Of a stretch of 64,000 bases of DNA, positions 7,676-61,811 are shown in pieces. Positions within the stretch are counted from its first letter, which is position 1; each line of letters opens with the position of its first letter. The DNA is from Candidatus Hydrogenedentota bacterium (GTDB taxonomy: Bacteria; Hydrogenedentota; Hydrogenedentia; Hydrogenedentales; CAILVY01): contig JAKQOG010000290.1 of assembly GCA_029565395.1 (NCBI GenBank), positions 24,035-88,034 of the forward strand. The letters run 5' to 3'. The translations under genes were made by a program, and so were the position numbers. The notes below the pieces were generated by a model. That model saw only the letters and a list, made by a program, of their open reading frames with translations. It made no database searches and had not been told where the DNA came from.

Positions 7676-9646
<1,971 letters not shown>

Positions 9647-22053: not shown

Positions 22054-22067
22054 ACAAGGATGTAGTT

Positions 22068-23369
22068 GTGAAAAAAACAATACTTATTGTCCTGATGATG
22101 AGTATAGGCATGCTGGCCTATGGACAGGCAACTATACGCATTGGTTCCCAAGCGGGCGTGGACAAGCGCATCCGCGTGGCGGCGCCGCCCTTTGCCTCCG
22201 CAGACCCCTCGCTATCCCCCGTGGCGCGGGAAATGGCGGAAGTCATTGGCTTTGATCTCGAATTCTCAGGATTGTTTTATGTGATCGCCCCTGCGGAGTA
22301 TCCGCCCAACTTCACGGCGTTGGATCCGGATGTCGCCAAACTCGACATGGAGGTATGGCGCATGGCGCGCGTGGATCAGTTGGTGTATGGAATGGTCCGC
22401 ACGGAGGGCAATGAGATTGTGGGGCAGTTCCGCCTGTTCGATTTGTTTTCCAAACAACAGATTGTGGGGTTGGAATTGCGGGTAGCCAAGGAATCGCCCC
22501 GGCTGGCCGCGCATAAATTTTCCGAGGAAGTGATCCGATATGCGGACGGCATCCCCGGAACGGGCACGAGCGAAGTCTGCTTCAGCGGCGGCGTCATCGG
22601 AAAGAAGGAAATCTATATCGCCGACTACGACGGCGCGAACGCCAAACAACTCACCAAGCACGGCTCCATCAGCATCAAACCCCGAATCTCTCCGGATGGC
22701 AATAAAATCGCCTATCTTTCCTATAAGGATCGCTTCCCGTTTTTGTATGTGTATGATCGCCGCACCGGCAAATCAACCCCTATCTCCGAAGAACCCGGCA
22801 TCAACGCCACCCCGTCCTGGTCGCCGGACGGCACCAAGCTGGCCATGGTCCTCAGCAAAGACGGAAATATGGAAATTTATCTGCGCGATGCGGATGGCCG
22901 GCGCCCCGTCCGGCTCACCAAGAACCGGTACATGGATACGTCCCCCTATTTCTCCCCCGATGGTAGTCAATTGGCCTTCGTGAGCGATCAGGGCGGTTCA
23001 CCGCAAATCTATGTGATGCCGATCACCGGCGGTGGCGGCACGCGCCTCTCCATGCAGGGGGGCAACTCCTACGATCCTTCATGGTCGCCCGATGGAAAGA
23101 AAATCGCTTACGTGGTGGAAAAACGCGGCGCGGGATTCCAAATCTGGATGATGGACGCCAACGGAAGCAATCCCATCCAATTAACCAATGCTGGTGGCAT
23201 CAATGAATCCCCCTCATGGTCGCCTGATTCACGCCATGTCATTTACGCCACCAACCGCAACGGCGGTTCGGAACTGTGGGGCATTAACATCAAGACCGGC
23301 CAGGAATTCAAACTCAGCAAGGGCAACCTGCGCACTGAAGGCCCCTCCTGGGGTCCCCGCCGGCAGTAA
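22068..23369 (+). CDS. tolB: Tol-Pal system beta-propeller protein TolB
   Basis: Signal peptide; TolB N-terminal domain; repeated P(S/Y)(W/F)SPDG blades (ISPDGNKIAYLSY, PSWSPDGTKLAMV, PYFSPDGSQLAFV, PSWSPDGKKIAYV, PSWSPDSRHVIYA). Confidence 0.85.
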   Translation: MKKTILIVLMMSIGMLAYGQATIRIGSQAGVDKRIRVAAPPFASADPSLSPVAREMAEVIGFDLEFSGLFYVIAPAEYPPNFTALDPDVAKLDMEVWRMARVDQLVYGMVRTEGNEIVGQFRLFDLFSKQQIVGLELRVAKESPRLAAHKFSEEVIRYADGIPGTGTSEVCFSGGVIGKKEIYIADYDGANAKQLTKHGSISIKPRISPDGNKIAYLSYKDRFPFLYVYDRRTGKSTPISEEPGINATPSWSPDGTKLAMVLSKDGNMEIYLRDADGRRPVRLTKNRYMDTSPYFSPDGSQLAFVSDQGGSPQIYVMPITGGGGTRLSMQGGNSYDPSWSPDGKKIAYVVEKRGAGFQIWMMDANGSNPIQLTNAGGINESPSWSPDSRHVIYATNRNGGSELWGINIKTGQEFKLSKGNLRTEGPSWGPRRQ

Positions 23370-25613: not shown

Positions 25614-27317
25614 CTATCGGATTACATTAATCAGGGTTTCAATCATGCTGTCAGCCACGGTTATAATGCGCGCGGAAGCTTCAAAGGCCCGTTGAAACTG
25701 CACCAGCGACGTCACTTCTTCATCAATATTTACGCCGGATACTTCCTGACGGCGGTTGTTATAATCTTGCACAAATGCCTCTTCCACGTCGAGTATGGCC
25801 AAATTGCCCTTTGAGGCCACCCCAATTTCCACTATGGTGGATTCATAATACTGGTTGGGCGTTTGCGTATCATTTTCAAACAGGTTCGCCGCACGAAGTT
25901 CCGCCATCAACAAAGCGGCGGAATTATCCCCCGTTTCAAGGAGATCCAGGCTGAAACCGGAGCCCAGCAGTTCAGGATGATCCGCCAAATATTCATTCAC
26001 CGAGATGGTGGCCGCGCTATGCCCGGTAAAGAAGCCATTTATCCCCAGAGCGGTCAACGCACCGGAGGTGTCATTGGAAAATACAAATGAATATCCTGAT
26101 TCCGGAGTAATAGTCAGCAGTCCATCCGCCCCCACAAGCGCGGACATATGCGATGAACTGTTGATCGCACTTTCAATGTCAGCCGCGGTTGTCGTCGCGT
26201 CTATGGTCACCGTGATGGTCTCCGCAACCGCACCGGTGCTGTCATAAACAACCAGATCAAAACTGCCGTCCTGAACGGTAAAAGGAAGCTGTGCCATATT
26301 CAGGGGGGCATAGGGACTGATCACCGCGTTGGTGGAGGTCACCGCCTCGGAGTAATTTTCAAGACCATTGCTTTGACAATGTATATTGTTGATGCTTTCA
26401 ATTAACGTATGCGCAATTACATCCATCCGCTCCATGACCGAGGGCAATTCCTCGTCACGGATTTTCAACACCCCAAATAACTCGCCATCGGTAATCAAGG
26501 CCGCTTGATTGTTATCGGCAAACCGGACCTGCAACAGGTCGGGCCGATCCGGGTCAAGGCTGGAATCCACCACCGCGGTAAGCTCCCGGCGGTTGGTCCC
26601 ATACACCAGCTCCGCGCCGCCCAACAGCACATCTATCGTCCCGTCAGTGCGTTCGCGCGAGGTAACCTTCACTATTTTTGAAAGTTCATCAATAAGCAAA
26701 TCGCGTTCATCGCGCAAATCATTCGCGGGACGTCCGCCCAACTCCGAATTACGGATGGTAAGATTCAGCGCCGCTATGCGTTCTGTAAGGGAATTAATCT
26801 CCTCCACTGTGTTCCGGACTTCCTCATTCGCATTCGTGCGCAACGCGTTCAGCCGATCCGCCATGTCATTAAAACTTGCGGCCAGCGATACCGCTTCCGC
26901 CAAGGTGGCCACACGACCCGATATTTCCTCCACGTTATTGGAAAAATCATTCAAAGAATCAAAAAACGATTCCATTCGGGAAGAAAATCCGGTATCCGAA
27001 GGCTCCTGAAAAATGTCTTCTATTTGAGAAAAGTACCCTGACTGAATCTCTGCGCTGCCCAAACCCGGCACCTGATTCCGGTACATTGTGTCCACAAATA
27101 CGTCTCGGAGACGGGTTATGGAATCGATGGCCGGACCTCTGCCTATCGCCCCATAGGGTTTATAATTGGGCATACGGGTGGTGAGTTCCACCCGTTGACG
27201 GGAATACCCTGCCCGGTTTACATTCGCAATATTGTGGCCCGTCGTGTCTAATTGAACTTGGGCAGCCAACATGCCTGCCCGCCCAATATCCAGCGCACTA
27301 AACAATGTACCCAAAAC
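25614..27317 (-). CDS. flgK: Flagellar hook-associated protein 1, FlgK (start is ambiguous: GTG 27317 or TTG 27314 preferred over ATG 27362)
   Basis: N-terminal flagellar rod/hook domain (SALDIGRAGMLAAQVQLDTTGHNIANVNRAGYSRQRVEL), FlgK central region and C-terminal helix; AAGGAAGAG RBS precedes the GTG/TTG, and the sigma-28 promoter leaves a ~60-nt leader to that start. Confidence 0.8.
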   Translation of the reverse strand, partial: VLGTLFSALDIGRAGMLAAQVQLDTTGHNIANVNRAGYSRQRVELTTRMPNYKPYGAIGRGPAIDSITRLRDVFVDTMYRNQVPGLGSAEIQSGYFSQIEDIFQEPSDTGFSSRMESFFDSLNDFSNNVEEISGRVATLAEAVSLAASFNDMADRLNALRTNANEEVRNTVEEINSLTERIAALNLTIRNSELGGRPANDLRDERDLLIDELSKIVKVTSRERTDGTIDVLLGGAELVYGTNRRELTAVVDSSLDPDRPDLLQVRFADNNQAALITDGELFGVLKIRDEELPSVMERMDVIAHTLIESINNIHCQSNGLENYSEAVTSTNAVISPYAPLNMAQLPFTVQDGSFDLVVYDSTGAVAETITVTIDATTTAADIESAINSSSHMSALVGADGLLTITPESGYSFVFSNDTSGALTALGINGFFTGHSAATISVNEYLADHPELLGSGFSLDLLETGDNSAALLMAELRAANLFENDTQTPNQYYESTIVEIGVASKGNLAILDVEEAFVQDYNNRRQEVSGVNIDEEVTSLVQFQRAFEASARIITVADSMIETLINVIR

Positions 27318-27387
27318 GCTCTTCCTTCTTGTTGATGCTCCTTTGCGTGCACTCAACCACATCTACCGTGAGCAAGGACCATTCCAT

Positions 27388-31069: not shown

Positions 31070-33604
31070 ATGGTTAAGAAGTTGATGGTGGCGCCGGAAG
31101 ACGTACGTAAAAGTCATTCTATCCAACTGGGAAAAATTCCCGTCAACACCTACAACCGGACAATCAAGCAAGAACTTGATTTGAAGTCCGGCATCACCGC
31201 CGAGCGCTGTCTGCGGATTTACAGAGATATGGCGATGGTCCGTGAATTCGAAACCATGCTGGATAATATCAAGAAGCTGGGCAGTTACCACGGCACGGCA
31301 TATAACCACGCCGGACCCGCCCACCTCTCCATCGGTCAGGAAGGTGCGGCTGTGGGCGAATGCGTTCACCTTTCCGTGGACGACCACATCTTCGGCAGTC
31401 ATCGGAGTCATGGCGAGATCGTTGCGAAGGGATTGCGCGCCGTCCAGGATCTCACCGCCAACGGTTTGAACTCCATTATGGAAAATTATTTCGGCGGCGT
31501 CATTCTCAAGGTCGTGCAAACGCATGAACCCAATTGGGAAGGCCTGACCCTTACGGAAAAGGGTAAAAAGAAGCCCGCCCTTGCCACGTCGGAAGAGGAA
31601 GAACTGGGCATCGACTTTCTGTTGTACGGCCTGCTCGCCGAAATTTTCGGACGCGAAAATGGTTTCAACAAAGGCATGGGCGGCTCCATGCACGCGTTCT
31701 GCCTCCCCTTCGGCGCGTACCCCGCGAACGCTATCGTCGGCGGCAGTGCGGATATCGCCACCGGCGCGGCGCTCTTCCGTAAAGTGCGGCGCAAGAGCGG
31801 TCTGTGCGTCGCCAATATCGGCGATGCGTCAGTGCACTGCGGACCCGTCTGGGAAGCCCTGAACTTCTCCACTATGGCCCAGTATTCCGAACTGTGGGGC
31901 GAAGGTTTTGAAGGCGGCCTGCCCATCATTTTCAATTTCATGGACAATTTCTACGGCATGGGCGGCCAGCCCATCGGTGAAACCGCCGGTTTCGAGCATC
32001 TCGCGCGCGTCGGCGCCGGATTGAACCCGGATAACATGCACGCGGAAGTCGTGGATGGCAACAATCCACTCGCCTTGGCCGACGCGTATAAACGCAAAAT
32101 CGATCTCATCAAGTCCGGCAAGGGGCCGGTGTTGCTCGATGTGCTGTGCTACCGGCAATCCGGCCACTCTCCAAGCGATCAATCCGCCTACCGCGAACGC
32201 GATGAGATCGAACTGTGGAAATCCGTGGATCCTCTCGTGGAATTCGCCGCGAAACTGAAAGACGCCGGTTTGGCTTCGGAAGATGACATCAAAACCATTC
32301 ACGCGTACGTGCAGCGCAAAGTATTCAAGGCATGCAACCTGGCCGTCAGCGAAGAAATCTCCCCGCGCATGAAACTCTCTCCACACCAAGGCGTCTCGCA
32401 AATGATGTTCCGCAACGAAGCGGAAAAACTTCCCGGGCTGGAACGCAAAGACGATGTGCGCATGCCTCTCGAAGAGAATTCGCGCGTCAAGAACATCGCC
32501 AAGAAATCGCGCAACGGCTTCGATGAAAACGGCGCGCCCCTGAAGAGCACCAAGGCGGTCACCTTCGGTGAAGCCATCTTCGAATCGGTGATCCATCACT
32601 TCTATAACGATTCACGCCTCGTGGCCTATGGCGAAGAAAACCGTGACTGGGGCGGCGCTTTCGCCGTGTACCAAGGACTCACGGACGCCCTGCCCTACAA
32701 CCGGCTCTTCAACTCCCCCATTTCCGAAGCCGCGATTGTCGGCACCGCCGTCGGGCTCGCCATGGAAGGCGGACGCGCCCTCGTCGAACTGATGTACTGC
32801 GACTTTATGGGCCGCGCGGGCGACGAAGTGTTCAACCAGTTGCCAAAATGGCAGGCAATGTCCGCCGGATTGATCAAGATGCCGGTGGTCCTGCGCGTGT
32901 CGGTCGGCGCGAAATACGGCGCGCAACACTCCCAGGACTGGACCGCCCTCGCCGCGCACGTGCCCGGCCTGAAAGTCATCTTCCCGGCCACGCCCTACAG
33001 CGCGAAAGGCCTGATGGCGTCCGCCCTCAGCGGCAACGACCCTGTGATTTTCTTCGAAAGTCAGCGGCTCTATAACCAGGTGGAAATCTTCCAACCGGGC
33101 GGCGTGCCTGCGGAATACTACCAACTGCCGATTGGCGAACCCGCCTGCATCAAGGAAGGCAAGGATCTCACCATCCTCACCTTCGGCGCCACGCTCTACC
33201 GCGCCATGGACGCCGCAAAACGTTTCGAAAAAGAATTCGGCATCTCCGCGGAAGTATGGGACGGGCAAACGCTTGTGCCGTTCAACTTCGCCCCCATCGT
33301 GGAAAGCGTCAAGAAAACCGGCAAACTGATCCTGTGCTCCGATGCATGCGAACGCGGCAGCTACATCCACACCATCGCCAGCCAGCTTGCGCAAATGGCC
33401 TTCGACTACCTCGATGCGCCCGTCTGCACCATTGGCGCGCAAAACTGGATCGTGCCGCCCGCCGAAATGGAAGAACAATATTTCCCGCAGGTCTTCAGCT
33501 TCCTCGACGCGTATCACCAGCAAATCAAGCCCCTGCCGGGATACACCCCCGTCATCAACCGCGCCCCGGAAGAAATGATCGCCCTCAACAAACTGGGCAT
33601 CTAA
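31070..33604 (+). CDS. Fused 2-oxoacid dehydrogenase E1 component, alpha+beta subunits in one 844-aa polypeptide (TPP-dependent)
   Basis: The N-terminal half resembles the E1 alpha TPP-binding domain; the C-terminal half resembles E1 beta/transketolase pyrimidine-binding and C-terminal domains (GEENRDWGGAFAVYQGL, PISEAAIVGTAVGLAMEG, FNFAPI). Confidence 0.75.
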   Translation: MVKKLMVAPEDVRKSHSIQLGKIPVNTYNRTIKQELDLKSGITAERCLRIYRDMAMVREFETMLDNIKKLGSYHGTAYNHAGPAHLSIGQEGAAVGECVHLSVDDHIFGSHRSHGEIVAKGLRAVQDLTANGLNSIMENYFGGVILKVVQTHEPNWEGLTLTEKGKKKPALATSEEEELGIDFLLYGLLAEIFGRENGFNKGMGGSMHAFCLPFGAYPANAIVGGSADIATGAALFRKVRRKSGLCVANIGDASVHCGPVWEALNFSTMAQYSELWGEGFEGGLPIIFNFMDNFYGMGGQPIGETAGFEHLARVGAGLNPDNMHAEVVDGNNPLALADAYKRKIDLIKSGKGPVLLDVLCYRQSGHSPSDQSAYRERDEIELWKSVDPLVEFAAKLKDAGLASEDDIKTIHAYVQRKVFKACNLAVSEEISPRMKLSPHQGVSQMMFRNEAEKLPGLERKDDVRMPLEENSRVKNIAKKSRNGFDENGAPLKSTKAVTFGEAIFESVIHHFYNDSRLVAYGEENRDWGGAFAVYQGLTDALPYNRLFNSPISEAAIVGTAVGLAMEGGRALVELMYCDFMGRAGDEVFNQLPKWQAMSAGLIKMPVVLRVSVGAKYGAQHSQDWTALAAHVPGLKVIFPATPYSAKGLMASALSGNDPVIFFESQRLYNQVEIFQPGGVPAEYYQLPIGEPACIKEGKDLTILTFGATLYRAMDAAKRFEKEFGISAEVWDGQTLVPFNFAPIVESVKKTGKLILCSDACERGSYIHTIASQLAQMAFDYLDAPVCTIGAQNWIVPPAEMEEQYFPQVFSFLDAYHQQIKPLPGYTPVINRAPEEMIALNKLGI

Positions 33605-33765: not shown

Positions 33766-33973
33766 TATGAGCGAACTTATCTTTCTGGTTGAAGAAGCGC
33801 CTGAAGGCGGGTATACCGCTAGAGCTATGGGAGAAGCCATCTTCACGGAAGCTGATACCTTGGATGAATTGCATGCACAAATTCGTGATGCGGTGACCTG
33901 CCATTTCGAAGACCACGCCCGCCCTAAGATTGTCCGGCTCCATTTTGTTCGCGAAGAGGTTATTGCGGTGTGA
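33766..33973 (+). CDS. hicB: HicB-family antitoxin (small, RNase-H-like fold type)
   Basis: 69-aa product MSELIFLVEEAPEGGYTARAMGEAIFTEADTLDELHAQIRDAVTCHF, typical of short HicB/UPF0150 antitoxins. RBS GAGGAAAAG; ATGA overlap with the downstream hicA; local GC (~49%) below the surroundings. Confidence 0.7.
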
Positions 33974-34212
33974 GACTCCCGCGTGATATCTCCGGCATGG
34001 AACTCACTCATCGACTGAGCCGGCTTGGTTATCGGATAACCCGCACAACAGGCAGTCATCAACGCCTTACAACTATGCTTCAGGGGGAACATCATGTTAC
34101 TGTCCCGCTGCATTCTCCCTTGAGAATGGGCACTCTCGCCGCTATTCTAAACGAAGTATCACAACACTTCGATATGTCTCGTCAAGACCTTCAAGAACAA
34201 CTCTTCGATTGA
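33970..34212 (+). CDS. hicA: HicA-family mRNA-interferase toxin
   Basis: 80-aa product with the HicA/YcfA signature: GYRITRTTGSHQRL then HHVTVPLHSPLRMGTLAAIL (GSH and TVP.H blocks). Confidence 0.7.
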   Translation: MRLPRDISGMELTHRLSRLGYRITRTTGSHQRLTTMLQGEHHVTVPLHSPLRMGTLAAILNEVSQHFDMSRQDLQEQLFD

Positions 34213-34264: not shown

Positions 34265-35653
34265 ATGGTGAACCAGTGCGGGAGTCCTGGAATGGAAAAA
34301 GAGCGAAGAAGTTACCCTTGGCAGCGGCGGCAACGCAAAATACTGGTGATCATATTCATTTTCTTTGTGGCACTGCCCGCTGCCCTGATTGCCCTGCGCA
34401 AATACCAGGATATTCAGTTCCAGAAACAACTGCAGGCCATTCGCGACGCCGGATTTCCCGCCACGGCCCCGGAGTTGGCCAACTACTATCCCACGCCGCC
34501 CGCTGATCAAAACGCCGCCGACCTGTATCAGCAGTCTTTCGATTTTAAAAAGCCGGGCCCGGCCAATCAGGAGTTCCGAGACCTTGAGCAAAAGCTTGGC
34601 GAGGTCAAGAAAGGCCGTTTTGCCGAAGATCTACACAAACTGGCGGAGGACTATCTGGCGGAAAATACAGAAAAACTCCGGCTCCTGCACGAGGCCGCCA
34701 AATTCCCTGCATGCCGCTTTCCCCTCGATTTTTCCAAAGGTTCTGCGCTCGAACTGCCCCATCTGAGCCAACTTCGCGCATCCATGCGGTTATTGTCGCT
34801 GGAAGCCATTCTGGCCGCCGAAGATGGCGATATGAACCGCGCCCTGGATTCCATCCTCACCGCCTTCGCCGTCACAAATGCCATTCGTCAGGAACCCCTC
34901 GTCATCTCACAACTGGTCTGGATGGCTTGCCATGGAATCGCCTGTGATACGGTGCGCCGCACGATGGATCTGGCGCCTTTTTCCGAAGAACAACTGGCGC
35001 AACTCGCAACCGCTCTGAAAAATGCCGAAGACCCCGAATCCATGGGCCGCGGACTGGCGGGCGAGCGCGTCCTGGCGCTTATGGCGTATGAGGATCCGAT
35101 ACTGATTACCAATGATCTTGACCACACTATTCATGGAGCAGGTACGGCCGCCGCGGCGTTGTTACAAGTAACAGGCGCACTTAACCGCGATTGTGAATAC
35201 TACCTGCGCATGATGAACCAGATGATTGATGCAAGCCGCCTGCCCGCATACGAAGCCATGCCTGCCATGCGCCAAATCGAGAGGCGTCTGAATGCTTCCT
35301 CCTCTTGGCTCCCTAGCATTGCCCGCATCCAACTTCCCGCACTCACGCGGATTATAGAAGCCCAGGCGCGTGACCAGGCAATACTCCGAACCACCGCCAC
35401 TTCCGTTGCTATCGAGCGGTACCGGCTGCTCTATAACCATCTCCCGGAACAAATCAACGATCTCACCCCCTCCTTTCTCGAATCCATTCCTATTGATCCC
35501 TTCGACGGACAACCCCTGCACTATCGCCGCCTTGATACCGGCTATGTGGTCTACAGTGTTGGTCTCAATCTAAAAGATGATGACGGCGCCGAGCCGCTGC
35601 CCAGACTAGACAACCGTATGACCGGCGACATTATTTTCAGGGTCGAACGATGA
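34265..35653 (+). CDS. Membrane-anchored protein of unknown function, paralog A: N-terminal signal-anchor, ~330-aa alpha-helical domain, C-terminal GspG-pseudopilin-like domain
   Basis: Basic cytoplasmic stub YPWQRRQRK followed by a TM helix; C-terminus AIERYRLLYNHLPEQINDLTPSFLESIPIDPFDGQPLHYRRLDTGYVVYSVGLNLKDDDG resembles the GspG/EpsG ALDMYKLDN..YPTTEQGL...LPKDPWGNDYQLL...DIFTLGADG region. Alternative start ATG 34292. Confidence 0.7.
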   Translation: MVNQCGSPGMEKERRSYPWQRRQRKILVIIFIFFVALPAALIALRKYQDIQFQKQLQAIRDAGFPATAPELANYYPTPPADQNAADLYQQSFDFKKPGPANQEFRDLEQKLGEVKKGRFAEDLHKLAEDYLAENTEKLRLLHEAAKFPACRFPLDFSKGSALELPHLSQLRASMRLLSLEAILAAEDGDMNRALDSILTAFAVTNAIRQEPLVISQLVWMACHGIACDTVRRTMDLAPFSEEQLAQLATALKNAEDPESMGRGLAGERVLALMAYEDPILITNDLDHTIHGAGTAAAALLQVTGALNRDCEYYLRMMNQMIDASRLPAYEAMPAMRQIERRLNASSSWLPSIARIQLPALTRIIEAQARDQAILRTTATSVAIERYRLLYNHLPEQINDLTPSFLESIPIDPFDGQPLHYRRLDTGYVVYSVGLNLKDDDGAEPLPRLDNRMTGDIIFRVER

Positions 35654-37059
35654 TCGTCTCCCAGCCCCATACCCATAACCAGCGCTACCCATGGCGGAAA
35701 CGCCGGCGGCGGGTACTGCTGGCGCTATTTTTGCTCGTTGTACTCCTTGGGGGCGGACTGGCGGTATTTAATTGGAAAATAAACACTCGTACGGAAGCCA
35801 TGCTCAAAACCTTACAGGCATCAGGCATTCCCACCACCCCAAAAGAACTGGAAAATCAATACCCCGCGCCGCCCCAAGGCAAGAACGCCGCTGAAACCTA
35901 TCAAAAAGCCTTTGAGACCGGAAAATACGACGAAAACGCAGAATCCTATGCCAAAATCGACGATAAAATGAGGGAAGAATCCAAGGATTCCAATCATCAG
36001 CCGACTCTATCTGATACGCTGCGCTCCATGGTCCGGGAGTATCTCAATGCGAACGCGGAAACCCTGCGCCTCTTGCATGAAGCCGCGAAAACCCCCGGCA
36101 GCCGCTATCCTTTGGACTTCTCCGATCCCATCAATATGAAATTAGACCATCTGGCCAAAATCCGGCAATCGCTGCGCTTGTTAAAACTGGAAGCCATGCT
36201 GGCCGCGGATGACAAGGATTTCGATAAAGCCCTGGAAGCCATCCGTGCCATGCTGGCGGCAGGGGATTCCGTTCGTCAAGAACCCATATTCATTTCCCAA
36301 CTGGTCCGGAATGCCTGCCATGGGTTGACTGTCGACGCACTTCAGTATGTACTGGCCTCCGGCACATTAACGGAGGAACAACTGGCGCGTCTGAATGACA
36401 TGTTCACACACCAGATAGACACGGAATCCTTTACACGCGGCTTACAGGGAGAATATATAGTCGGCATGGCTGTTTTTGATCGTCCCGAAATTATGGCGGA
36501 CCTCTACAAGGATATGTTTGGGGTTGAATCCTATGTGCCCGGCGCTACACGCACTCTCTTGCGGGTCGTCAGTATGACCGGATGGACGGAAGCGGATCGA
36601 TACCGCTATCTGAGCCGTCTCAGCGAGCTTAACGCTATCAGCCGCATGCCGGTCTATGAGGCCATCCCTGCCATGCAGGCCTTTGAAGACCAAATCCAGC
36701 GAAACAATTCCTGGATACCGACGATTTCCGGAAATCTTTCCTCCGGCCTGAGTAGAGCGGTCTTTTCGTTTGGCCGGGATCAGGCACAGATTCAATTTGC
36801 CACCACCGCCATTGCCATACAACGCTACCAATCATTCACTTCCAAACTTCCGGACTCTCTCAATGACCTTGTTCCGTCTTTCATGAGTTCCATGCCCCAA
36901 GATCCCTTCGATGGACAGCCCATGCGCTACCGCCGAATCGAAAATGGGTACCTCGTGTATAGCGTCGGATATAACCAACAGGACGAGGGCGGAGTTGCCC
37001 CCGCTGAAAATCAGGATAGGTATCGAACCGGAGACATCATTTTTACTCTGGAACACTGA
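35650..37059 (+). CDS. Membrane-anchored protein of unknown function, paralog B (tandem duplicate of 34265..35653)
   Basis: Same architecture and colinear similarity to paralog A: YPWRKRRRR then a TM helix; shared blocks LRLLHEAAK, RYPLDFS, QEPIFISQLVRNACHG; C-terminus AIQRYQSFTSKLPDSLNDLVPSFMSSMPQDPFDGQPMRYRRIENGYLVYSVGYNQQDEGG. ATGA overlap with paralog A. Confidence 0.7.
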   Translation: MIVSQPHTHNQRYPWRKRRRRVLLALFLLVVLLGGGLAVFNWKINTRTEAMLKTLQASGIPTTPKELENQYPAPPQGKNAAETYQKAFETGKYDENAESYAKIDDKMREESKDSNHQPTLSDTLRSMVREYLNANAETLRLLHEAAKTPGSRYPLDFSDPINMKLDHLAKIRQSLRLLKLEAMLAADDKDFDKALEAIRAMLAAGDSVRQEPIFISQLVRNACHGLTVDALQYVLASGTLTEEQLARLNDMFTHQIDTESFTRGLQGEYIVGMAVFDRPEIMADLYKDMFGVESYVPGATRTLLRVVSMTGWTEADRYRYLSRLSELNAISRMPVYEAIPAMQAFEDQIQRNNSWIPTISGNLSSGLSRAVFSFGRDQAQIQFATTAIAIQRYQSFTSKLPDSLNDLVPSFMSSMPQDPFDGQPMRYRRIENGYLVYSVGYNQQDEGGVAPAENQDRYRTGDIIFTLEH

Positions 37060-40925: not shown

Positions 40926-42776
40926 TTACTGCTCCGTGGGCGAAAGGAGGAAACGCAGATTGGGCAATGTTTTTCCGTTTTTATCCGTGATTCGCAGCAC
41001 AAAGCCCCAATTCACCTCGGTGTTGCACACCTTCACCAACAGCGGTGTCACCCCCTTGGGAATAGTCACCGACACCGTATCGCGATCCAGGTATGCCGAC
41101 CCTTCCACGGGATAGTCATATACCAGCGTATTGCCCAGCCACACTTTGCCCGCGTCGTTCGTTCCCACACGAAGTTGCGCCGGACACTCCTCGTCAGCGG
41201 CAACATAACACAGCGCATAGGCGCACACCTTTTCGGCGGGCGTGAACACGCGTTTAAAATCGACAAACATTGAATTGCCCGGCGCGGCATACTCCTGCCA
41301 CCGTCCTTTCCCGTTCACGGTGTCATATTCCGCCGAAAGATCTATGCCTTGTTCCGGCGGATACACCATAGTGTGACCGATGGATAATTCAGTGCAGGGA
41401 AAAGGCCCTGCCACCAGCCACCGGGTCTGCGCCCCAAAGAGTTTTTGAAGATTCACCGGTTTGCCGTGGAAATACTGCAAGGCCAAATTCCACCCCTCCG
41501 CCACCTTCGTTGGTTCCAGGGAATTCACCGGAATAAGACCAAAGTCAGGCATGGAGCCCGGCTCGACAAATCGCGGCACCGGCGTCACGCCCAGTTCCTT
41601 CGAATAATCAAGGAGGAACATCTGGCGCAACTCTTTCGCCACCGTTACATAAGGGGGTGACAGGATCACCTCGCGTTTCGCAATAACGTCAAGATAGGCC
41701 TGCAAGTCAGCCGGGCCTGTGTATAGCTCCAATTTGCGCCCCGCCAATTGCTCATAGCAATTATGGCTGTATATCCAGTTGTACCGTTTGCCGGCCATAA
41801 GCGAGCCCGCATAACCCTGCCGGAATTCCTCCAGCGGCATGCCGGGTTCCTGCACCGACTGATAATTAAACCCAAAGGGCCATATGCCCGGCGCAATGGA
41901 ACAATGACTTTTCCAATATGTTTTCGCGCGCGGGCTCAACAGGCGTTGAAACAGGCTGTTGCAGGCCCAGGCATGCCCCAGCATATACCGGATGTTTGGA
42001 TTGCGGTATGTGTGCTCGGTGCAATAATGAATCCCGCCGGGCGCTTGCCGGGCCGCGGCTTCTTCCACCCAGGCAAGGTGGATAACCATGCCCAGGCTGA
42101 ATTCCTGCTCCGGGAACGTAAGAAACACCATGTCGGGGAATTCATCATAGAGAATCCGGATTACACCCGTCATGCGCTCCCGCACCTTTCGAACCAGATC
42201 CTCCCGCGTATAGCCGGCATAGGTATACCCAGGCCAATCGAACTGGTATTGCTCCCCGCAATATTCAATATCCAGGGCAATGCCATTACATCCGGAATCG
42301 CGCGCAAAAATCGCAAACTGCCTGAAATTGTTGTTAATACGCCCCCACGCGGCGTCATTGAACCATTCAAAGAAATGATCAAAGGCAATTTTCAAAAATG
42401 TTTCCGACCCTATACTCCTGCAACTCTCATTCGCACGCTTCGCCTGCTGAAAGGTCTCATCGGATTCCCCAATGGTCCACGGCTTTTTATCTGTTGCCCA
42501 GATATCCGTGCACCACTCCCGCGCCACCTGATCCAGAAAAAATGCCTGCACGCCATGCTGCGCCCAAACCTGGGCGTCCGCAATAATCTGTTCCGGACTT
42601 GCCGAAAAAAGAATCGTCTTGGGGAGCGGCAATTCCGCCGTGGTTCCATACGAAAGCCCCGGCTCCGCCGTTTTTGACGGTTCCACGGCAACATCCGCAC
42701 AAGCACACCCCATCCCCAACAGCACTACGAATAGACACACCCGTGATTCCCACATACTGCCTCCTTTCAGGTACAC
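40926..42776 (-). CDS. Secreted protein of unknown function (616 aa; possible glycoside-hydrolase-like catalytic domain plus C-terminal beta-sandwich)
   Basis: Signal/lipoprotein-like N-terminus (LLGMGCACAD); coding-like composition throughout; no motif I can assign with confidence. Confidence 0.5.
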   Translation of the reverse strand: MYLKGGSMWESRVCLFVVLLGMGCACADVAVEPSKTAEPGLSYGTTAELPLPKTILFSASPEQIIADAQVWAQHGVQAFFLDQVAREWCTDIWATDKKPWTIGESDETFQQAKRANESCRSIGSETFLKIAFDHFFEWFNDAAWGRINNNFRQFAIFARDSGCNGIALDIEYCGEQYQFDWPGYTYAGYTREDLVRKVRERMTGVIRILYDEFPDMVFLTFPEQEFSLGMVIHLAWVEEAAARQAPGGIHYCTEHTYRNPNIRYMLGHAWACNSLFQRLLSPRAKTYWKSHCSIAPGIWPFGFNYQSVQEPGMPLEEFRQGYAGSLMAGKRYNWIYSHNCYEQLAGRKLELYTGPADLQAYLDVIAKREVILSPPYVTVAKELRQMFLLDYSKELGVTPVPRFVEPGSMPDFGLIPVNSLEPTKVAEGWNLALQYFHGKPVNLQKLFGAQTRWLVAGPFPCTELSIGHTMVYPPEQGIDLSAEYDTVNGKGRWQEYAAPGNSMFVDFKRVFTPAEKVCAYALCYVAADEECPAQLRVGTNDAGKVWLGNTLVYDYPVEGSAYLDRDTVSVTIPKGVTPLLVKVCNTEVNWGFVLRITDKNGKTLPNLRFLLSPTEQ

Positions 42777-42816
42777 TCTATATCATGCCCAACTACCAGG
42801 AAACGCTAATCATACG

Positions 42817-43743
42817 ATGAAACCCGGTAACAATAAAACATCTGACCCCAATTGGATCAAAATCCAGGATGATTTTGCCATACTCCGGCCAAAACAACGC
42901 AACCGGTTCCGCATCCTTCAGGTTACCGACTTCCACTCCAATGTCGACGAAATATTGAACGAAAAAACCCGCGCGGACGTCCGGGCCATGGTCCGGCGTT
43001 TCGCCCCGGATCTTCTGGCGGTCACCGGCGATATCTGGTGCGGCGACGACACCCCGGACGCCGCGCCCATGTGGATGCAGCGCGATCTGGATTTTCTGGG
43101 GGGTCTTGACGTCCCATGGGCATTTATTTGGGGAAACCATGATTATGCAGCGGATTTCGAGGCCGCACAACGCCAAATCGCCGCCACACCGAATGCCGTC
43201 GCTCCGCATGGAAACGGCCGCGGAAATTTCCGTGTGGAAGTGCGCCAGGACAGACATCCGCTTCCCGCTTGGGATCTTTTCTTCTTGAATTCCGGCCCGC
43301 AATGGCAACTGCCCCAGGATCTCGCGTGGTTCCAGGAAGAAACCACACGAATAACTCAGGATCGAGGAACAATCGTTCCGGCTATCGCCTATTTTCACAT
43401 CCCTTTGAAAAATTACCAGGACGCCATCGATCAAGGCCGTACTATCGGCGAAGGAACGGAATACATGCTGAATTGGGGCGATGAGGAAGGCCTTGCGGCG
43501 CCAATATTCAAGCAGGCGGGAAACGTCCGGGCCTGTTTCACCGCCCACAGCCATAAAAATGATTTCTGGTTTGAAGAAGACGGTGTGGTGTTCGCCTATG
43601 GACGCGCCACTGGCTATGGCGGCTACGGCGGCGAAGATCTCCCCAAAGGCGGCAAATTACTGGACCTGGATCTTCATTCCGATCATTTTAGTTTCATGAC
43701 CGTCTTTGGCGATGGCACGGTAGAACAAACAACGGTTCGATAA
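42817..43743 (+). CDS. Calcineurin-like metallophosphoesterase
   Basis: Metallophosphatase motifs QVTDFH, GDIWCGDD, GNHDY and the downstream His blocks. Start at ATG 42817 (MKPGNNK), because the longest ORF from 42619 overlaps the divergent upstream gene. Confidence 0.75.
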   Translation: MKPGNNKTSDPNWIKIQDDFAILRPKQRNRFRILQVTDFHSNVDEILNEKTRADVRAMVRRFAPDLLAVTGDIWCGDDTPDAAPMWMQRDLDFLGGLDVPWAFIWGNHDYAADFEAAQRQIAATPNAVAPHGNGRGNFRVEVRQDRHPLPAWDLFFLNSGPQWQLPQDLAWFQEETTRITQDRGTIVPAIAYFHIPLKNYQDAIDQGRTIGEGTEYMLNWGDEEGLAAPIFKQAGNVRACFTAHSHKNDFWFEEDGVVFAYGRATGYGGYGGEDLPKGGKLLDLDLHSDHFSFMTVFGDGTVEQTTVR

Positions 43744-44048: not shown

Positions 44049-44825
44049 CTAATTCGCTTCTCCTGATTTCCGGAAGATGCTGTCCACCGTGTTACGCAAA
44101 TATTGCTCATCGGTTAATCCGGCGGATGCTTCTTCCGGGAATGCGACCTGTTCTCTGAAATGGTCCGCCAGTTCTCTGTAAAGTGCCACCCGCGCATCGG
44201 GGTCCAGCTCATTCCGGCGCATTAACGCTTGCACCAACAGCGCAACTTCCACGGGCGACACCTGCTGCCGCAGGCGCGCTTCCAGATGCGGATAACTCCG
44301 GAAGGAATTGTATTTATCCGGCAGAAGCTGCTGAAGATCCGGCTGTTTGGGCGTGGGGGTATGCACCACCACCGTGTTCGCCGCCAAATCGCCCAGGCGC
44401 TGCGCATGCCGGCTGAACAACATGGCCGCCCCACCCGCCAAATACAGCATCGGCAGCATATCCACGGTGCGCATCAGATTGCGCATCACGATCTGACTGA
44501 ACTGAAGCCGCAAACCCTGCGCATCCATCACGCGGATCTTGAGCAGGAATTTACCCAGGGTCTGACCATGCCATATCCATTCCAGCAAGATATTGTATCC
44601 GGTATTCAATACAAAGAACGTCAGGATGGAAATGGCCGTGGTGAGATCGCCGGAAAATGACTGCAATATGGAAAACGTGGTGAGTACAACCAAGGCCACG
44701 ACTAATGTAACGCCGAAATCTATCCCCCATGCCAGAAACCGGGCGCTGGGACCCGCCAAAAGCAGTGAAAACTCCACGCCTTCCGGCGTGCGCACGGCCA
44801 AGGTGGCGTTGCGGGGTTCAATCAT
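44049..44825 (-). CDS. RDD-family membrane protein (last gene of the MoxR-associated operon)
   Basis: RDD-domain pattern (R...GQTLGKFLLKIRV...D...) with 3 TM helices; start taken at MIEPRN (44825), overlapping the upstream gene end by 8 nt. Confidence 0.7.
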   Translation of the reverse strand: MIEPRNATLAVRTPEGVEFSLLLAGPSARFLAWGIDFGVTLVVALVVLTTFSILQSFSGDLTTAISILTFFVLNTGYNILLEWIWHGQTLGKFLLKIRVMDAQGLRLQFSQIVMRNLMRTVDMLPMLYLAGGAAMLFSRHAQRLGDLAANTVVVHTPTPKQPDLQQLLPDKYNSFRSYPHLEARLRQQVSPVEVALLVQALMRRNELDPDARVALYRELADHFREQVAFPEEASAGLTDEQYLRNTVDSIFRKSGEAN

Positions 44826-45849
44826 GGGGAGCCGCCTTTCCCGACAGCCTACGCCCGCGCTTTCGCCCCGATCCCAGCAGGAACGCAAATAAAAGAAGCA
44901 ATTCCAGGCTGCCGAACGCTATCTTCAAGGCATAGGGAATAACCGGTTCATGATACTGCGAAAAAAACGATTCCACGATGCCCGCCCAAACCAACAGCAA
45001 CATAACCCCCACGATCAGCGTTACCAGATCGGGACCCGCAGCGCGCAGCCGCTCCCGGAATGATTGTGCGCTGCCCCACCCAATCAGGGCGCCTGCCAGC
45101 ACAAGCCCCGCCTGCCCTGCAATCAGCACCGCAGGCAATTCGATGGAGCCATGCGGCAAGAGCCATCCCGCCAGAAAAGTGCTCTGCCCCGCCAGAATGT
45201 AATCAATGGCCACGCCTCCAAGAATCACCCCGTTGTACAACATCATTATCAGCGTGCCAAGCCCCCATGTGATGCCCAGCGACATGGCGAAAATGCTCAC
45301 CCGGATATTATTCGTCATCAACGCGGCGGCAAACGTAGATCGCGCGCCTTCAAGGCGATCTTCCGTGGAGTGTTCTTCTCTCTCCACACGTTTGGCGGGA
45401 TCATCCTGTAAATGACTGAATTGAACGGGGAATACCGATTCCTTTGCAGCCGGGTCCAGCAGCACCGCGCCCGCGCCAAAAAAACTGCCGATGACCATCG
45501 CGGCCAGAGCGATGAGAAAAGCGCGATACCGCCGGCGGAAAGTCTGCGGAAAGGTTTCAAAAAACCATGCGAGTGGTTTCAAACGATAGGGGGCATCGCG
45601 AATCTCATGAATCTCCGCATACGCGCGCCCCACCAGTCCCTCAAGGTATCCCCGGATTTCCGGTTCCACCGCGAAAGTGCGGATGCGCGCCAAATCCGAT
45701 GCGGCCCGGCGGTACAAATAATAGAACCGGCGGGTTTCCGCAAGATCCATGCGCTGCTCCAGGCGCCGCTCCAGGCGGCTCAGACACTCCTCCAGTTCCT
45801 GCCAGAACGGCTGTTCTTCCCGGACAAAATGGGCGACATCCAAAATCAC
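44818..45849 (-). CDS. SpoIIM-like (DUF95) membrane protein
   Basis: Soluble N-terminal helical region, then a 5-6 TM stage-II-sporulation-M-like core (NNIRVSIFAMSLGITWGLGT...LPHGSIELPAVLIAGQAG). Confidence 0.65.
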   Translation of the reverse strand: MILDVAHFVREEQPFWQELEECLSRLERRLEQRMDLAETRRFYYLYRRAASDLARIRTFAVEPEIRGYLEGLVGRAYAEIHEIRDAPYRLKPLAWFFETFPQTFRRRYRAFLIALAAMVIGSFFGAGAVLLDPAAKESVFPVQFSHLQDDPAKRVEREEHSTEDRLEGARSTFAAALMTNNIRVSIFAMSLGITWGLGTLIMMLYNGVILGGVAIDYILAGQSTFLAGWLLPHGSIELPAVLIAGQAGLVLAGALIGWGSAQSFRERLRAAGPDLVTLIVGVMLLLVWAGIVESFFSQYHEPVIPYALKIAFGSLELLLLFAFLLGSGRKRGRRLSGKAAPHD

Positions 45850-47201
45850 AAGATCTGCCTTTGCTTTATACTCAAGTATTGGGAAACCAATTCCGGCGTC
45901 AGCGACTCGTTTTCCAACAAACCCAGAGCCACTCCCCGCCGGTGCAAGATGCGCTGCAATTCGCGCAGATCACGCCACTGCAAATGCCCGCTCAGGCGCT
46001 TATAGACATCGTCCACGCTGGATACCTCGGAACGATCAAACAAGGGTCCCACGCCCGCGGGCGTCAACATGTTCGCCAGAATCAGATGGCGGCGGGTAAT
46101 CAGATCCATGCTTCGCGCGAAGGTTTCCGAAAGCACGGGATCATCCAGGTTTGTCAGAAACACCAGCAAGGCGCGCCGCCGCAAGCGCGTGCGAATGAAT
46201 GAACATACCTCGTCAAAATCCGGCGTTACATCGTTGGGTTCCAGCGTATAGAGCGCGTCCCGGCAAACCGTGTAATGCTCCCGGCCGTTTCGCGCGCGCA
46301 CAAACCCGTGAATGCGATCGCTAAACGTCAATAATCCGAACAAATCCCCTTGACGCTCCGCCACCATGCCCAAAATCATCGCGGCATGGATAAAACGGTC
46401 CAGTTGTGAAACGGAACCCTGGGCGGGATCCTGAAGGGTGCGTCCGCTCAACCGGGAGGCGTCCAGGATCACATACACTTCCTGCGTCCGCTCCACTTGA
46501 TACACTTTCGTGATCGGATGCGCACGCCGCGCCGTCGCTTTCCAGTGTATGTCTTCAAAACTATCCCCCGGAATATATTCGCGCAATTTTTCAAATTCGC
46601 GGCCTTTGCCAACCCGCCGCCGTGCATGCAATCCGAGCGCGCCCCGGTTCAGGAAAATCGCCGCCACACGGTTGCGCTCGCCCAGCAAGTTCGGATACAC
46701 CCGGAGTTCCACGTGATCCGGAAAGACCCGCCGGCATCTCCAAAATCCTACCACCGAATCCATGGCCGCATAGATATTTTCAAGAAAAAACTCGCCGCGT
46801 TTATGCGGCGTCACCGGCCAATCCAGCCGATATTCCTCCGCTTGTTCGCCAATGGAAACGATCTTCGTCTCCTCCACGCTTTCCACACTGGGCGGAAACG
46901 ACAACCCAACCACCAGCGAACGCGGCTGACGATCCCGGTTGGCAATGTGAATGCCGATCATTCCGGCCCGGTCTTTCGTAAGCCGGAACAGTGGCGCGCC
47001 GCCATTGGTCCGGATGAACTCCAGGTGCAATGCGCCAAACCGGTTCGTGGACAACACCGCATCCACTACAGCCAGAACGGTGAACACCCCCATAATCCCC
47101 AACACCAACAGGGTCCACTCCGGAACGGCGGACACGACCAATGCACACGGCAGGAATACCGCCGCCGTCCAGAATATCAATCTGTTGGTGGGGGCTATCA
47201 T
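45846..47201 (-). CDS. DUF58-domain protein (MoxR partner) with N-terminal TM hairpin
   Basis: DUF58 signature GKGREFEKLREYIPGDSFEDIHWKATARRAHPITKVYQVERTQEVYVILD; ATGA overlaps at both ends. Confidence 0.8.
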   Translation of the reverse strand: MIAPTNRLIFWTAAVFLPCALVVSAVPEWTLLVLGIMGVFTVLAVVDAVLSTNRFGALHLEFIRTNGGAPLFRLTKDRAGMIGIHIANRDRQPRSLVVGLSFPPSVESVEETKIVSIGEQAEEYRLDWPVTPHKRGEFFLENIYAAMDSVVGFWRCRRVFPDHVELRVYPNLLGERNRVAAIFLNRGALGLHARRRVGKGREFEKLREYIPGDSFEDIHWKATARRAHPITKVYQVERTQEVYVILDASRLSGRTLQDPAQGSVSQLDRFIHAAMILGMVAERQGDLFGLLTFSDRIHGFVRARNGREHYTVCRDALYTLEPNDVTPDFDEVCSFIRTRLRRRALLVFLTNLDDPVLSETFARSMDLITRRHLILANMLTPAGVGPLFDRSEVSSVDDVYKRLSGHLQWRDLRELQRILHRRGVALGLLENESLTPELVSQYLSIKQRQIL

Positions 47202-48163
47202 CGCGGAACCGTAATACTCTGCAGCAATTGTTGAATGATTTCAGCACACGTCAGCCCTTCTATTTCATATTCGGGCCGGAGAATAATCCGGTGTTCAAGA
47301 ACCGCCCGCGCCATGCTTTTGATATCGTCCGGCGTGACAAAATCCCGGTTTTGCATCGCCGCGCACACCCGGCTGGAAAGCAACAACGCCTGCGTGGCGC
47401 GCGGCCCCGCGCCCACCATCACGCTACTGTGTTCGCGCGTCTTACGCACGATATCCACCGCATAGCCCAGGAGTTCATCGCGCACCACCACCTCATTCAA
47501 GATCGTCCGCATAAGCGCCAATTGTCCCTCTTCCAGCACCTGCCACACCTCTCCGCGCGCCAACACCGCTTCCGGCGCTTCCAGACCCAGTGTGCGCCGG
47601 GCAAGCGTGAGTTCTTCCTCCCGCTTGGGAGTTTCCATGATAATTTTGAGCATAAACCGGTCCACCTGCGCTTCCGGAAGCGGGTACGTTCCCTCAAACT
47701 CGATGGGGTTCTGCGTCGCGAACACCGTGAAATTGGGCGACAGCGGATGGGTCTCGCGATCTATGGTTACACGCCGCTCCTGCATCGCCTGCAACAGCGC
47801 GGACTGTGTTTTTGCGGGCGCCCGGTTGATTTCATCCGCCAATAGAAACGTCGTGAACACAGGGCCCTTCACCAATTGGAATTCATTGTTCTTCAGATTG
47901 AACACATTCGTCCCAATAATGTCCGCCGGCATAAGATCCGGCGTAAACTGGATGCGGTTGAACTCGCATCCAAGCACCCGCGCCAGCGTCCGCACCAACA
48001 GCGTTTTCGCCACGCCCGGCACGCCCTCCACCAGCGCATGATGATTCGAAAAAATGGCGATAAGCGCCTGATCGATCACCTCGGCGTGTCCAATGATCAC
48101 TTTGCCGATTTCCTGGCGCGCACGGGCCAGCAGATCCTGCAATTGTTCAAGTGTTGAGGTCAC
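47198..48163 (-). CDS. MoxR-family AAA+ ATPase
   Basis: Walker A GVPGVAKT, Walker B/sensor LLADEINRAPAKTQSALLQAMQER, and the MoxR C-terminal lid; 321 aa. Confidence 0.9.
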   Translation of the reverse strand: MTSTLEQLQDLLARARQEIGKVIIGHAEVIDQALIAIFSNHHALVEGVPGVAKTLLVRTLARVLGCEFNRIQFTPDLMPADIIGTNVFNLKNNEFQLVKGPVFTTFLLADEINRAPAKTQSALLQAMQERRVTIDRETHPLSPNFTVFATQNPIEFEGTYPLPEAQVDRFMLKIIMETPKREEELTLARRTLGLEAPEAVLARGEVWQVLEEGQLALMRTILNEVVVRDELLGYAVDIVRKTREHSSVMVGAGPRATQALLLSSRVCAAMQNRDFVTPDDIKSMARAVLEHRIILRPEYEIEGLTCAEIIQQLLQSITVPR

Positions 48164-48166
48164 GGA

Positions 48167-49390
48167 TCATTTCCTTTCTTTTATCAGCCTCTCCATGGTT
48201 TTATAACGCGCCACCAGGGCGGCCGCGTTGTTTTCCGTATCCTGAGCCAACCCCATAATGTCGTTATGTGCCGCGGGAGCAAAGCGCGGATCATGCGCAA
48301 AATCCCGCCGCCATTCCTCATAACAGGTAGTTAACAACCGGCGAACCGGCACACTGCGCCGAACCAGTTGATGCAAGCCGGTAAAAGCTTCCTGTACATT
48401 TTCCGATTCCACCGTCTGTTTCAGATACGCCGCATCGTGCCGGGGCACAAGACTCCACATGCTCTTCCAAACAAATAACAGCCCTGTCACTGCAAAAGCG
48501 ATCAGCGCAAGATCAAGCCGGTAACGCCGGACCAAGTCCATCAACCCCGGCGTATGCACAATGCCAAAATGCGATTCATCCACCACGATTTGTGTATTCG
48601 GGCCCACCAGCCACGTTAAAAACCCCGTCGGACGTTCTTTGCGCAACGCTTCATTACTGATAAAATACGAATCCGCGCACACCACAATGGAGCCGCTGCC
48701 CCACTGCCGCTCAATAATCACCGGAAAATCATCGCGCGCATACACCACGCGCCAATGATCCGCCAGCTTCTCAAAATAAGAAGCGGATCGCCAGGGCAAT
48801 GAGTCCGGAAGTTCCTCAACTTCCGCTTTCTTATTCACAAAAATCTTTTGCGCTTTCTCTGAAAACGCCTTCCCGCTTATTTCAAACCCCCAGCGTTCTT
48901 TGATGTTTACATAGAGTTCCTTTTCCCCCTGTATCGCCTCCTTTTCCGATTCCCCTTCCCGCGTTTTTTCTCTTTCCGCCCGTTCCTGCTCCTCTTTCCA
49001 GTACACGCCGGATAAGGGATAATACGCGATCACCATGCGCCCCCCCGTTAATACAAATCCTTCCGCCGCGCGGATCACTTCCATGGGATCGTCCGTATCC
49101 GGCACCCCTGCCAAAAATAATGTGGTGTTATTCCCCTGGTTCAGTTCCATAATGTTGCGTTCATGCCGGCGCACCTGCAACCCTGGCATCATGGCAAGCG
49201 ATTCGTAAAAGGCCTGTGCACCCATGGGGTCCGCACGGTGTGTCGAATAGGCCGGATAAACGTCGCCATAATCCATACGAAGCGAAAACACCCGCCATAA
49301 TTGCACCAAGGCCAGAAGACCTATCACCACCGCCGCTCCCAACGCCCATGCGGAGCCTCGTTTTCCATATATGCGTGCAGGCGCGGCCAC
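48167..49390 (-). CDS. DUF4350-domain protein (N-terminal TM anchor)
   Basis: DUF4350-like periplasmic domain (GSGSIVVCADSYFISNEAL) and a coiled-coil low-complexity insert; recurrent partner in MoxR/DUF58 neighbourhoods. Confidence 0.65.
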   Translation of the reverse strand: MAAPARIYGKRGSAWALGAAVVIGLLALVQLWRVFSLRMDYGDVYPAYSTHRADPMGAQAFYESLAMMPGLQVRRHERNIMELNQGNNTTLFLAGVPDTDDPMEVIRAAEGFVLTGGRMVIAYYPLSGVYWKEEQERAEREKTREGESEKEAIQGEKELYVNIKERWGFEISGKAFSEKAQKIFVNKKAEVEELPDSLPWRSASYFEKLADHWRVVYARDDFPVIIERQWGSGSIVVCADSYFISNEALRKERPTGFLTWLVGPNTQIVVDESHFGIVHTPGLMDLVRRYRLDLALIAFAVTGLLFVWKSMWSLVPRHDAAYLKQTVESENVQEAFTGLHQLVRRSVPVRRLLTTCYEEWRRDFAHDPRFAPAAHNDIMGLAQDTENNAAALVARYKTMERLIKERK

Positions 49391-49393
49391 GGC

Positions 49394-61621: not shown

Positions 61622-61811
61622 CGTCCCAGTCATGCCCCGCATTGTGGCTGGAATCCCCGCCGTAAGGCAAATAATCCAACCCCATACACGCTGGCCTCGA
61701 AGAATACTCTTAACCTGCATTTTCCACCAACGCTTAATCATACTCGTCATTGCGAGTTCCCCACCCGCCGCAGGCGGGGTGAATTATAAAGAAACACCTA
61801 AACGCATCCAC

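Follow-up and report, generated by a model that had tools for sequence, protein, structure and literature searches.

Two adjacent genes at 34265-37059, on the forward strand of a 64,000-nucleotide stretch of DNA from a Candidatus Hydrogenedentota bacterium (contig JAKQOG010000290.1; hereafter the window), encode membrane-anchored proteins whose C-terminal domain resembles the globular head of GspG, the major pseudopilin of type II secretion systems (T2SS). As the initial annotation had it, the first open reading frame, ORF1 (34265-35653, 462 amino acids), and the second, ORF2 (35650-37059, 469 amino acids), both exist, share an ATGA overlap of stop and start, and are clear paralogs, with 39% identity over 417 aligned residues (E = 1e-108). 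The length given there for ORF2 stands, and this protein is 100% identical to HPO11842.1, a 'hypothetical protein' from a Candidatus Hydrogenedentes metagenome-assembled genome (MAG). That of ORF1 probably does not: translation more likely starts at 34292 than at 34265, giving a protein of 453 residues (34292-35653), since a Shine-Dalgarno-like GGGAG lies 7 nucleotides 5' of the ATG at 34292 and GenBank entry HPO11843.1, 453 residues long, is identical to ORF1 read from that codon. Scans of both proteins against Pfam and NCBIfam matched no model and returned noise only, and a scan for promoters and terminators around the pair gave nothing above shuffled expectation.

Domain layout and topology

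The two proteins have the same layout: a basic stub, one transmembrane (TM) helix, a helical region of about 320 residues, and ~98 residues forming the C-terminal domain. In paralog 1, the translation shows a stub, YPWQRRQRK, followed by the signal-anchor helix ILVIIFIFFVALPAALIAL (34340-34396). The predicted periplasmic helical-repeat domain (34412-35359) aligns with ORF2 residues ~50-371 and lies inside the match of the whole protein to the profile hidden Markov model (HMM) of the family, and the GspG-like head (35360-35650) is recovered by a head-domain HMM (domain E-value 1.9e-36), with the motifs AIERYR..LP, IPIDPFDGQPLHY, VYSVGLNLKDDDG and GDIIFRVER. In paralog 2, the stub YPWRKRRRR precedes the signal anchor VLLALFLLVVLLGGGLAVF (35713-35769), the predicted periplasmic alpha-solenoid or TPR-like domain covers residues ~46-371 (35785-36762), and the head (residues 372-469; 36763-37056) comprises an alpha1C-like helix, a short helix, a DPFDG loop, a beta-hairpin, an acidic loop with N442, D445 and D462, and a third strand.

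An AlphaFold2 (AF2) model of ORF2, built on a family alignment of 108 sequences (A1), presents the full length as a single body (mean predicted local distance difference test score, pLDDT, 94.3; predicted template modelling score, pTM, 0.90). A continuous helix at residues 14-57 holds the hydrophobic anchor (22-40) and is followed by ~16 further helices up to residue 397, a short helix (404-407), a beta-hairpin (426-430/433-438), a 24-residue loop and the third strand (463-468). The stub, single anchor and long all-helical region that had been read from the sequence are thus borne out. The helical part resembles generic alpha-solenoids alone (TPR, HEAT and designed repeats). It has no significant match to TPR or other repeat families of Pfam, with one of the 108 members showing a weak TPR_12 match (E = 0.031), and no specific natural homologue was found, the full-length family profile returning nothing meaningful against the sequences of the PDB. 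Two functional readings of this region were considered and rejected: a metalloprotease site at LLHEAAK, where there is no second histidine and neither the H nor the E is near-invariant, and a conserved disulfide between the cysteines of CRYP and NACHG, because ORF2 has a serine at the first position.

Both proteins would be inserted through an N-in signal anchor, with their bulk in the periplasm. This topology is suggested by the positive-inside rule, as the ORF2 stub is strongly positive (RKRRRR), and by homologues in which a cytoplasmic kinase precedes the TM helix, which places the rest of the module outside the cytoplasm. The window proteins themselves expose a cytoplasmic stub of only ~16-21 residues, with no Pkinase domain (PF00069) before the TM helix.

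A pseudopilin head without pilin assembly determinants

The C-terminus had been aligned block by block with the globular domain of major pseudopilins, and profile-profile comparison reproduces this alignment. With hhalign, the alignment of C-terminal domains (A2) matches an alignment (A4) of 20 genuine GspG sequences with 93.1% probability and an E-value of 3.2e-7, pairing AIQRYQ..LP..L..LVP with ALDMYKLDN..YPT..GL..LV, MPQDPFDGQPMRY with LPQDPWG..YQLL, and VYSVGYN with IFSLGPD. Searched against all PDB sequences, the same profile ranks GspG/XcpT (2kep) first (E = 0.0098). Individual relatives point the same way: PF08334 is weakly matched by 25 of the 108 full-length members (best E-value 8.7e-4; any other family by at most three members) and TIGR01710 by 31 of 51 C-terminal domains (best 1.7e-4; any other family by at most one). 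These matches of relatives are sub-threshold, below the curated cut-offs, and the window proteins themselves show no match to either GspG family at E<=1. The PDB, hhalign and family matches together lead us to regard the C-terminal domain as a genuine GspG-type pseudopilin head, with a predicted alpha/beta fold. The similarity thus has statistical support, and the AF2 model gives the C-terminus a pilin-type alpha/beta arrangement. The domain is larger than the ~70 residues initially allotted to it, reaching ~98 residues with the alpha1C-like helix (370-397) included.

Does such a head still assemble? The absence of a prepilin leader, already noted for the pair, holds family-wide. A class III prepilin motif is found neither in the two proteins nor in the six frames of the 64-kb window, and occurs in none of 240 family proteins, against 119 of 120 GspG controls. 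In the AF2 model of ORF2, the TM helix (22-40) and the alpha1C-like helix lie ~320 residues apart. As the class III signal, Glu5 and a contiguous alpha1N are all missing and the two helices are so widely separated, canonical polymerisation into a filament is excluded. Together with the hhalign result, the lack of the motif across the family supports the proposal that a pilin-fold domain was recruited into another membrane-anchored context.

A large family with tandem copies

Both window proteins match the family profile end to end (E = 3.2e-159 for ORF1 and 2e-162 for ORF2). Searched exhaustively with the family HMM, 1.84 billion cluster representatives (clusters at 50% identity) yielded 59,647 proteins at a threshold of E<=1e-3; tightening it to E<=1e-10 left 44,052, and to E<=1e-30, 15,297. 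Nearly all of the best-scoring matches are full-length, at 430-500 residues. For this combination of TM anchor, alpha-solenoid and GspG-like head there is no Pfam or NCBIfam model, and we found no account of the family in the literature searched on pseudopilins, on pilin-like domains and kinase sensors, on Planctomycetes or on Hydrogenedentes. Members with an organism name and 54 genome loci come mostly from Planctomycetota (Phycisphaerae, Sedimentisphaerales, Pirellulales, Isosphaeraceae, Gemmataceae and Brocadiia), Verrucomicrobiota, Lentisphaeria and Hydrogenedentes MAGs. Some loci carry odd MAG labels, namely Nitrospirales, Nitrospiraceae, Gammaproteobacteria, Rhodocyclaceae, Acidiferrales and Chthonomonadaceae (loci L009, which is CAYYRW010000077.1, L042, L045, L057, L012 and L061). 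The label of L009 looks wrong, because this locus shares the synteny ORF1-ORF2-TerC with the Hydrogenedentes window at 69-87% identity; the others could reflect mis-binning or horizontal transfer.

Tandem arrays are common, with five copies in L004 and L046, four in L029 and L025, three in L001 and L033, and two in the window and in L009. The duplication that produced ORF1 and ORF2 is not recent, since the ORF1-ORF2-TerC arrangement is kept in L009 with the two proteins at 69-71% identity. Three longer proteins (P0382, P0405 and P0435; 886-924 residues) match the family profile twice each and are either two-module fusions or read-through calls over tandem copies.

Fusions to signalling and transport domains

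A search with the ectodomain of one Isosphaeraceae member (L054) alone found ~25 clusters of proteins of 770-865 residues that combine a Pkinase domain, one TM helix at ~330-380 and the full helical and pilin-like module. These kinase-fused homologues (for example P0121, P0123-P0125 and P0145) come from Gemmataceae and Isosphaeraceae. In L054 itself a Zn ribbon and a Ser/Thr kinase are followed by a TM helix and the complete ectodomain, although its kinase N-lobe and Zn ribbon (7760-8300) lie upstream in another frame than the rest of the gene. This break is likely a frameshift of a long-read MAG and not the mark of a pseudogene, because intact homologues of ~824 residues exist (P0121, 94% identity). 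Two kinase-fused homologues have small ORFs upstream that bear no relation to one another, and the contexts of three kinase-fused members have nothing specific in common.

Other fusions involve an ABC-2 type permease (PF12679) in two members, an N-terminal GYF_2 domain in others, and Cys-rich, Zn-ribbon-like N-termini in L058 and L034, seen in the sequence itself but not matched by any Pfam model. Most members have no cytoplasmic domain, the median stub in the family being 13 residues. These kinase, permease, GYF_2 and Zn-ribbon-like fusions give the best hint of function that the family offers: the ectodomain is a portable periplasmic module, wired repeatedly to signalling or transport parts.

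Conservation and a candidate Ca2+ site

Conservation is concentrated in the head, which holds 20 of the 31 near-invariant columns and is 49% identical between ORF1 and ORF2, against 28-42% in helical segments. D418, in the DPFDG loop, is invariant in the 108-sequence alignment, and three further acidic positions are conserved (D/N442 in 105, D445 in 102 and D462 in 103 of the 108 sequences). Both ORFs carry D418 and the signature YSVG-x-[DN]-xx-D-[DE]-GG ... D-[IVL]-x-F. In major pseudopilins, the side chains of PulG D117 and D125, with backbone carbonyls, bind a structural Ca2+ (PMC13081927). Position 442 is aligned by hhalign opposite PulG D117, and a Ca2+-stabilised, GspG-like loop may plausibly have been retained in the head.

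Genomic context

Upstream of the pair lie genes for an alanine racemase, a YacP NYN protein and a fused E1 dehydrogenase, then a hicB-like gene and hicA; downstream, on the opposite strand, are TerC, a GFO/IDH/MocA oxidoreductase and a xylose-isomerase-like TIM barrel. The hicBA cassette (33767-34212, +) separates the E1 dehydrogenase gene from paralog 1. Its identification holds for hicA (PF07927, E = 7.7e-9); the hicB-like ORF has no Pfam match at E<=1e-3. In a related genome the racemase-YacP-E1 order is kept, but one family gene comes immediately after it and hicBA is missing; the cassette is therefore a local insertion, and it looks recent. The co-occurrence of family genes with hicBA that had been suggested for checking is thus absent at the syntenic site of the relative, nor is hicBA among the recurrent neighbours elsewhere. 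The E1 dehydrogenase itself (31070-33604, +) is an 844-residue single-chain fusion of the alpha (E1_dh) and beta (Transket_pyr and Transketolase_C) components, 87% identical to its counterpart in the relative L008.

To survey neighbours, related loci were retrieved with a narrow alignment (A3), which biases them to members carrying P[QIN]DPFDGQ. When ~620 non-family genes among ~700 from 62 loci were clustered, no family turned up in over 7 of 57 loci, and those found most often were an ABC ATPase, a sulfatase, a coiled-coil membrane protein and kinases. The family thus has no conserved partner gene. A co-occurrence with T2SS or type IV pilus (T4P) genes was likewise not found at locus level: a prepilin motif is present in one of the ~700 genes called and a T2SSE-like gene in one of the 62 loci, and no gsp or pil machinery genes (GspC-M, D, E, F, O) flank the pair.

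A coiled-coil membrane protein of ~555 residues, Ala/Gln-rich and without a Pfam match, follows the family gene or array in five loci, mostly from Phycisphaerae and Sedimentisphaerales (for instance L001 9472-11145, L004 15260-16939 and L011 4856-6511), often with NHL/SGL and VWA/MoxR genes after it; it is absent from the window. Clusters of MoxR, VWA, DUF58 and BatA genes lie less than 10 kb from family genes in L001, L003, L011 and L023, loci that are partly related, and the window has a different cluster, of RDD, SpoIIM-like, DUF58, MoxR AAA_3 ATPase, DUF4350 and DUF4129 genes at 44049-51184 (-), 7-14 kb from the pair. Chance, or synteny within the lineage, might account for this proximity.

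A lone T2SSE-type (GspE/PilB-like) ATPase is encoded at 18051-19541 (+), 15 kb from the pair, between genes for a CYTH protein and a PMT_2 glycosyltransferase, with no other secretion or pilus genes near it. Elsewhere in the window, a 1620-residue protein (56888-61750, -) has only a weak GH38 C-terminal match, and proteins of 616 residues (40926-42776, -) and 253 residues (42793-43554, -) have no Pfam match. A gene for the flagellar hook-associated protein FlgK (25614-27362, -), with genes for a TonB-C protein and TolB nearby (21190-23369), suggests that the host is a flagellated diderm.

Possible roles of the pair

We propose that the window proteins act as a non-polymerising periplasmic module for binding or sensing, a reading to which we give about an even chance. 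Each gene is predicted to yield a type II (N-in) single-pass inner-membrane protein displaying a rigid two-part ectodomain in the periplasm, in which the last helix of the ~320-residue alpha-solenoid doubles as the alpha1C of a GspG-type head. In this proposal the head now serves as the conserved centre of a portable module, and the more variable solenoid, together with tandem duplication, would diversify specificity. The fold, the homology, the reasoning on topology, the fusions, the size of the family and its want of conserved neighbours come out of the analysis itself, while the binding or sensing role, the Ca2+ site and the diversified specificity are inferences. The window proteins would represent the common stub-only form, binding a periplasmic ligand or partner; as this form has no cytoplasmic domain, its output, if any, would pass through lateral or periplasmic interactions. 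Adhesion, sensing and a secretion-associated function had all been put forward for the pair. The kinase fusions favour sensing or binding, and the neighbouring genes argue against an operon-level link to secretion or pili. Several points weigh against our proposal. The structural evidence is prediction throughout, and the analysis turned up no ligand, partner or output for the stub-only form. The kinase fusions occur in a single planctomycetal branch and may represent a structural module put to a second use. The near-invariant residues of the solenoid are mostly G, P, L and A, plus N79 and R152, so that conservation reveals no evident polar pocket. As for the Ca2+ site, it is read off an alignment alone, where PulG has D117 both window proteins have N instead of D, and the loop after the hairpin is ~13 residues longer than in GspG.

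One alternative is a purely structural or chaperone-like scaffold of the envelope, tethered to the membrane, whose TPR-like helical part would organise or hold envelope layers or proteins of the periplasm, with the head as a stable, possibly Ca2+-dependent cap and no part in signalling or in sensing a specific ligand. The helical part does resemble only solenoids of the generic protein-protein interaction kind, most members have nothing but a short stub in the cytoplasm, envelope proteins often come in many copies and in tandem arrays, and the MoxR/VWA/DUF58/BatA clusters lie beside the gene in a few loci. A passive cap is not, however, expected to be the most conserved segment, and the repeated fusion to receptor-type Ser/Thr kinases and to an ABC-2 permease argues for the conveying of information or substrate; we put the chance of a scaffold at roughly one in four. 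A further alternative is an accessory to a T2SS- or T4P-like machine. Its head might anchor, cap or stop the machine, or act as a decoy, by docking on the pseudopilus, on the platform that assembles it or on proteins that bind pseudopilins. The head is closest to the major pseudopilin GspG and not to a generic pilin, no other part of the protein is as conserved, and the organism-named members belong mostly to Planctomycetota, Verrucomicrobiota, Lentisphaeria and Hydrogenedentes. These phyla carry large expansions of prepilin-type (DUF1559) proteins, and an accessory role would tie the family to the massively expanded pseudopilin repertoires of the Planctomycetes-Verrucomicrobia-Chlamydiae (PVC) group and Hydrogenedentes; the window also holds its T2SSE-type ATPase. 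Yet this ATPase is not adjacent and has unrelated flanking genes, prepilin motifs and T2SSE-like genes are rare around family members, no neighbour family is widely recurrent, and without class III signal, Glu5 and contiguous alpha1N canonical incorporation into a filament is impossible. We consider an accessory role improbable, at about one chance in seven; the missing linkage speaks against it for operons and not for the genome as a whole.

Two other explanations are essentially refuted. Were the GspG resemblance a chance or generic beta-hairpin match, the pair would be just two hypothetical membrane proteins. Neither protein reaches the T2SSG or GspG models of Pfam and NCBIfam by itself, and the full-length profile finds nothing in the PDB; but a profile-profile E-value as low as that obtained with hhalign, and the return of the same family in 25 of 108 members and 31 of 51 domains where others appear at most three times and once, are hard to reconcile with chance. 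The pair might also belong, as cargo or as a functional partner, to the hicBA cassette next to it or to a mobile element; hicA ends 52-79 nucleotides upstream on the same strand. Against this stand above all the synteny of the relative in which the alanine racemase, YacP and E1 dehydrogenase genes lead straight to the family gene, the conservation of ORF1-ORF2-TerC in L009 with no HicA or HicB match there at E<=1e-10, the absence of hicBA from the recurrent neighbours, and an unremarkable GC content.

A more daring reading would make the family a 'pseudopilin-mimic' sensor, whose head binds the partners of the major pseudopilin (platform, pseudopilus subunits or secreted substrates); we give it perhaps one chance in ten. 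Cells of the PVC group and Hydrogenedentes would in that case monitor or regulate endopilus or T2SS-like activity, Gemmataceae and Isosphaeraceae would couple such activity directly to Ser/Thr phosphorylation, and the stub-only copies in tandem would be receptors that compete or modulate.

Comparison with known systems

The fold of the head is known; what neither Pfam and NCBIfam nor the literature searched describe is its C-terminal place on a TM-anchored solenoid, the loss of everything that pilins need for assembly, the family's size and the use as a kinase ectodomain. A major-pseudopilin head, known as a filament building block, appears to be reused in a non-polymerising periplasmic module. 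Its attachment to kinases provides a handle on uncharacterised sensor ectodomains in Planctomycetota, whose signalling and pseudopilin repertoires are large and poorly understood, and with a named domain model, hypothetical proteins in the tens of thousands would gain an annotation at once.

Compared with GspG, PulG, EpsG and XcpT (PF08334, TIGR01710), which have a class III signal, an N-methyl-Phe, Glu5 and alpha1N, the window proteins are devoid of all four, score under the curated cut-offs of both models and have no gsp or pil neighbours. Their head is C-terminal, after a TM anchor and a 320-residue solenoid, and differs in its loops, the alpha-beta loop being shorter and the post-hairpin loop longer. 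In modular type IV pilins, such as PilB and PilC of Streptococcus sanguinis, the pilin module is N-terminal, keeps its prepilin signal, polymerises and displays the extra domain on the filament. In our proteins the domain order is reversed and the polymerisation determinants are absent. As for the solenoid, TPR-like and other alpha-solenoid domains provide a likeness of shape, with no significant TPR or repeat match in Pfam and no specific natural homologue. Finally, the Gemmataceae and Isosphaeraceae homologues share with Hanks-type Ser/Thr receptor kinases of the PknB-PASTA type the layout of kinase, single TM helix and ectodomain, whereas the window proteins have no kinase or other cytoplasmic domain, and their ectodomain is unrelated to PASTA, PBP and other described sensor folds.

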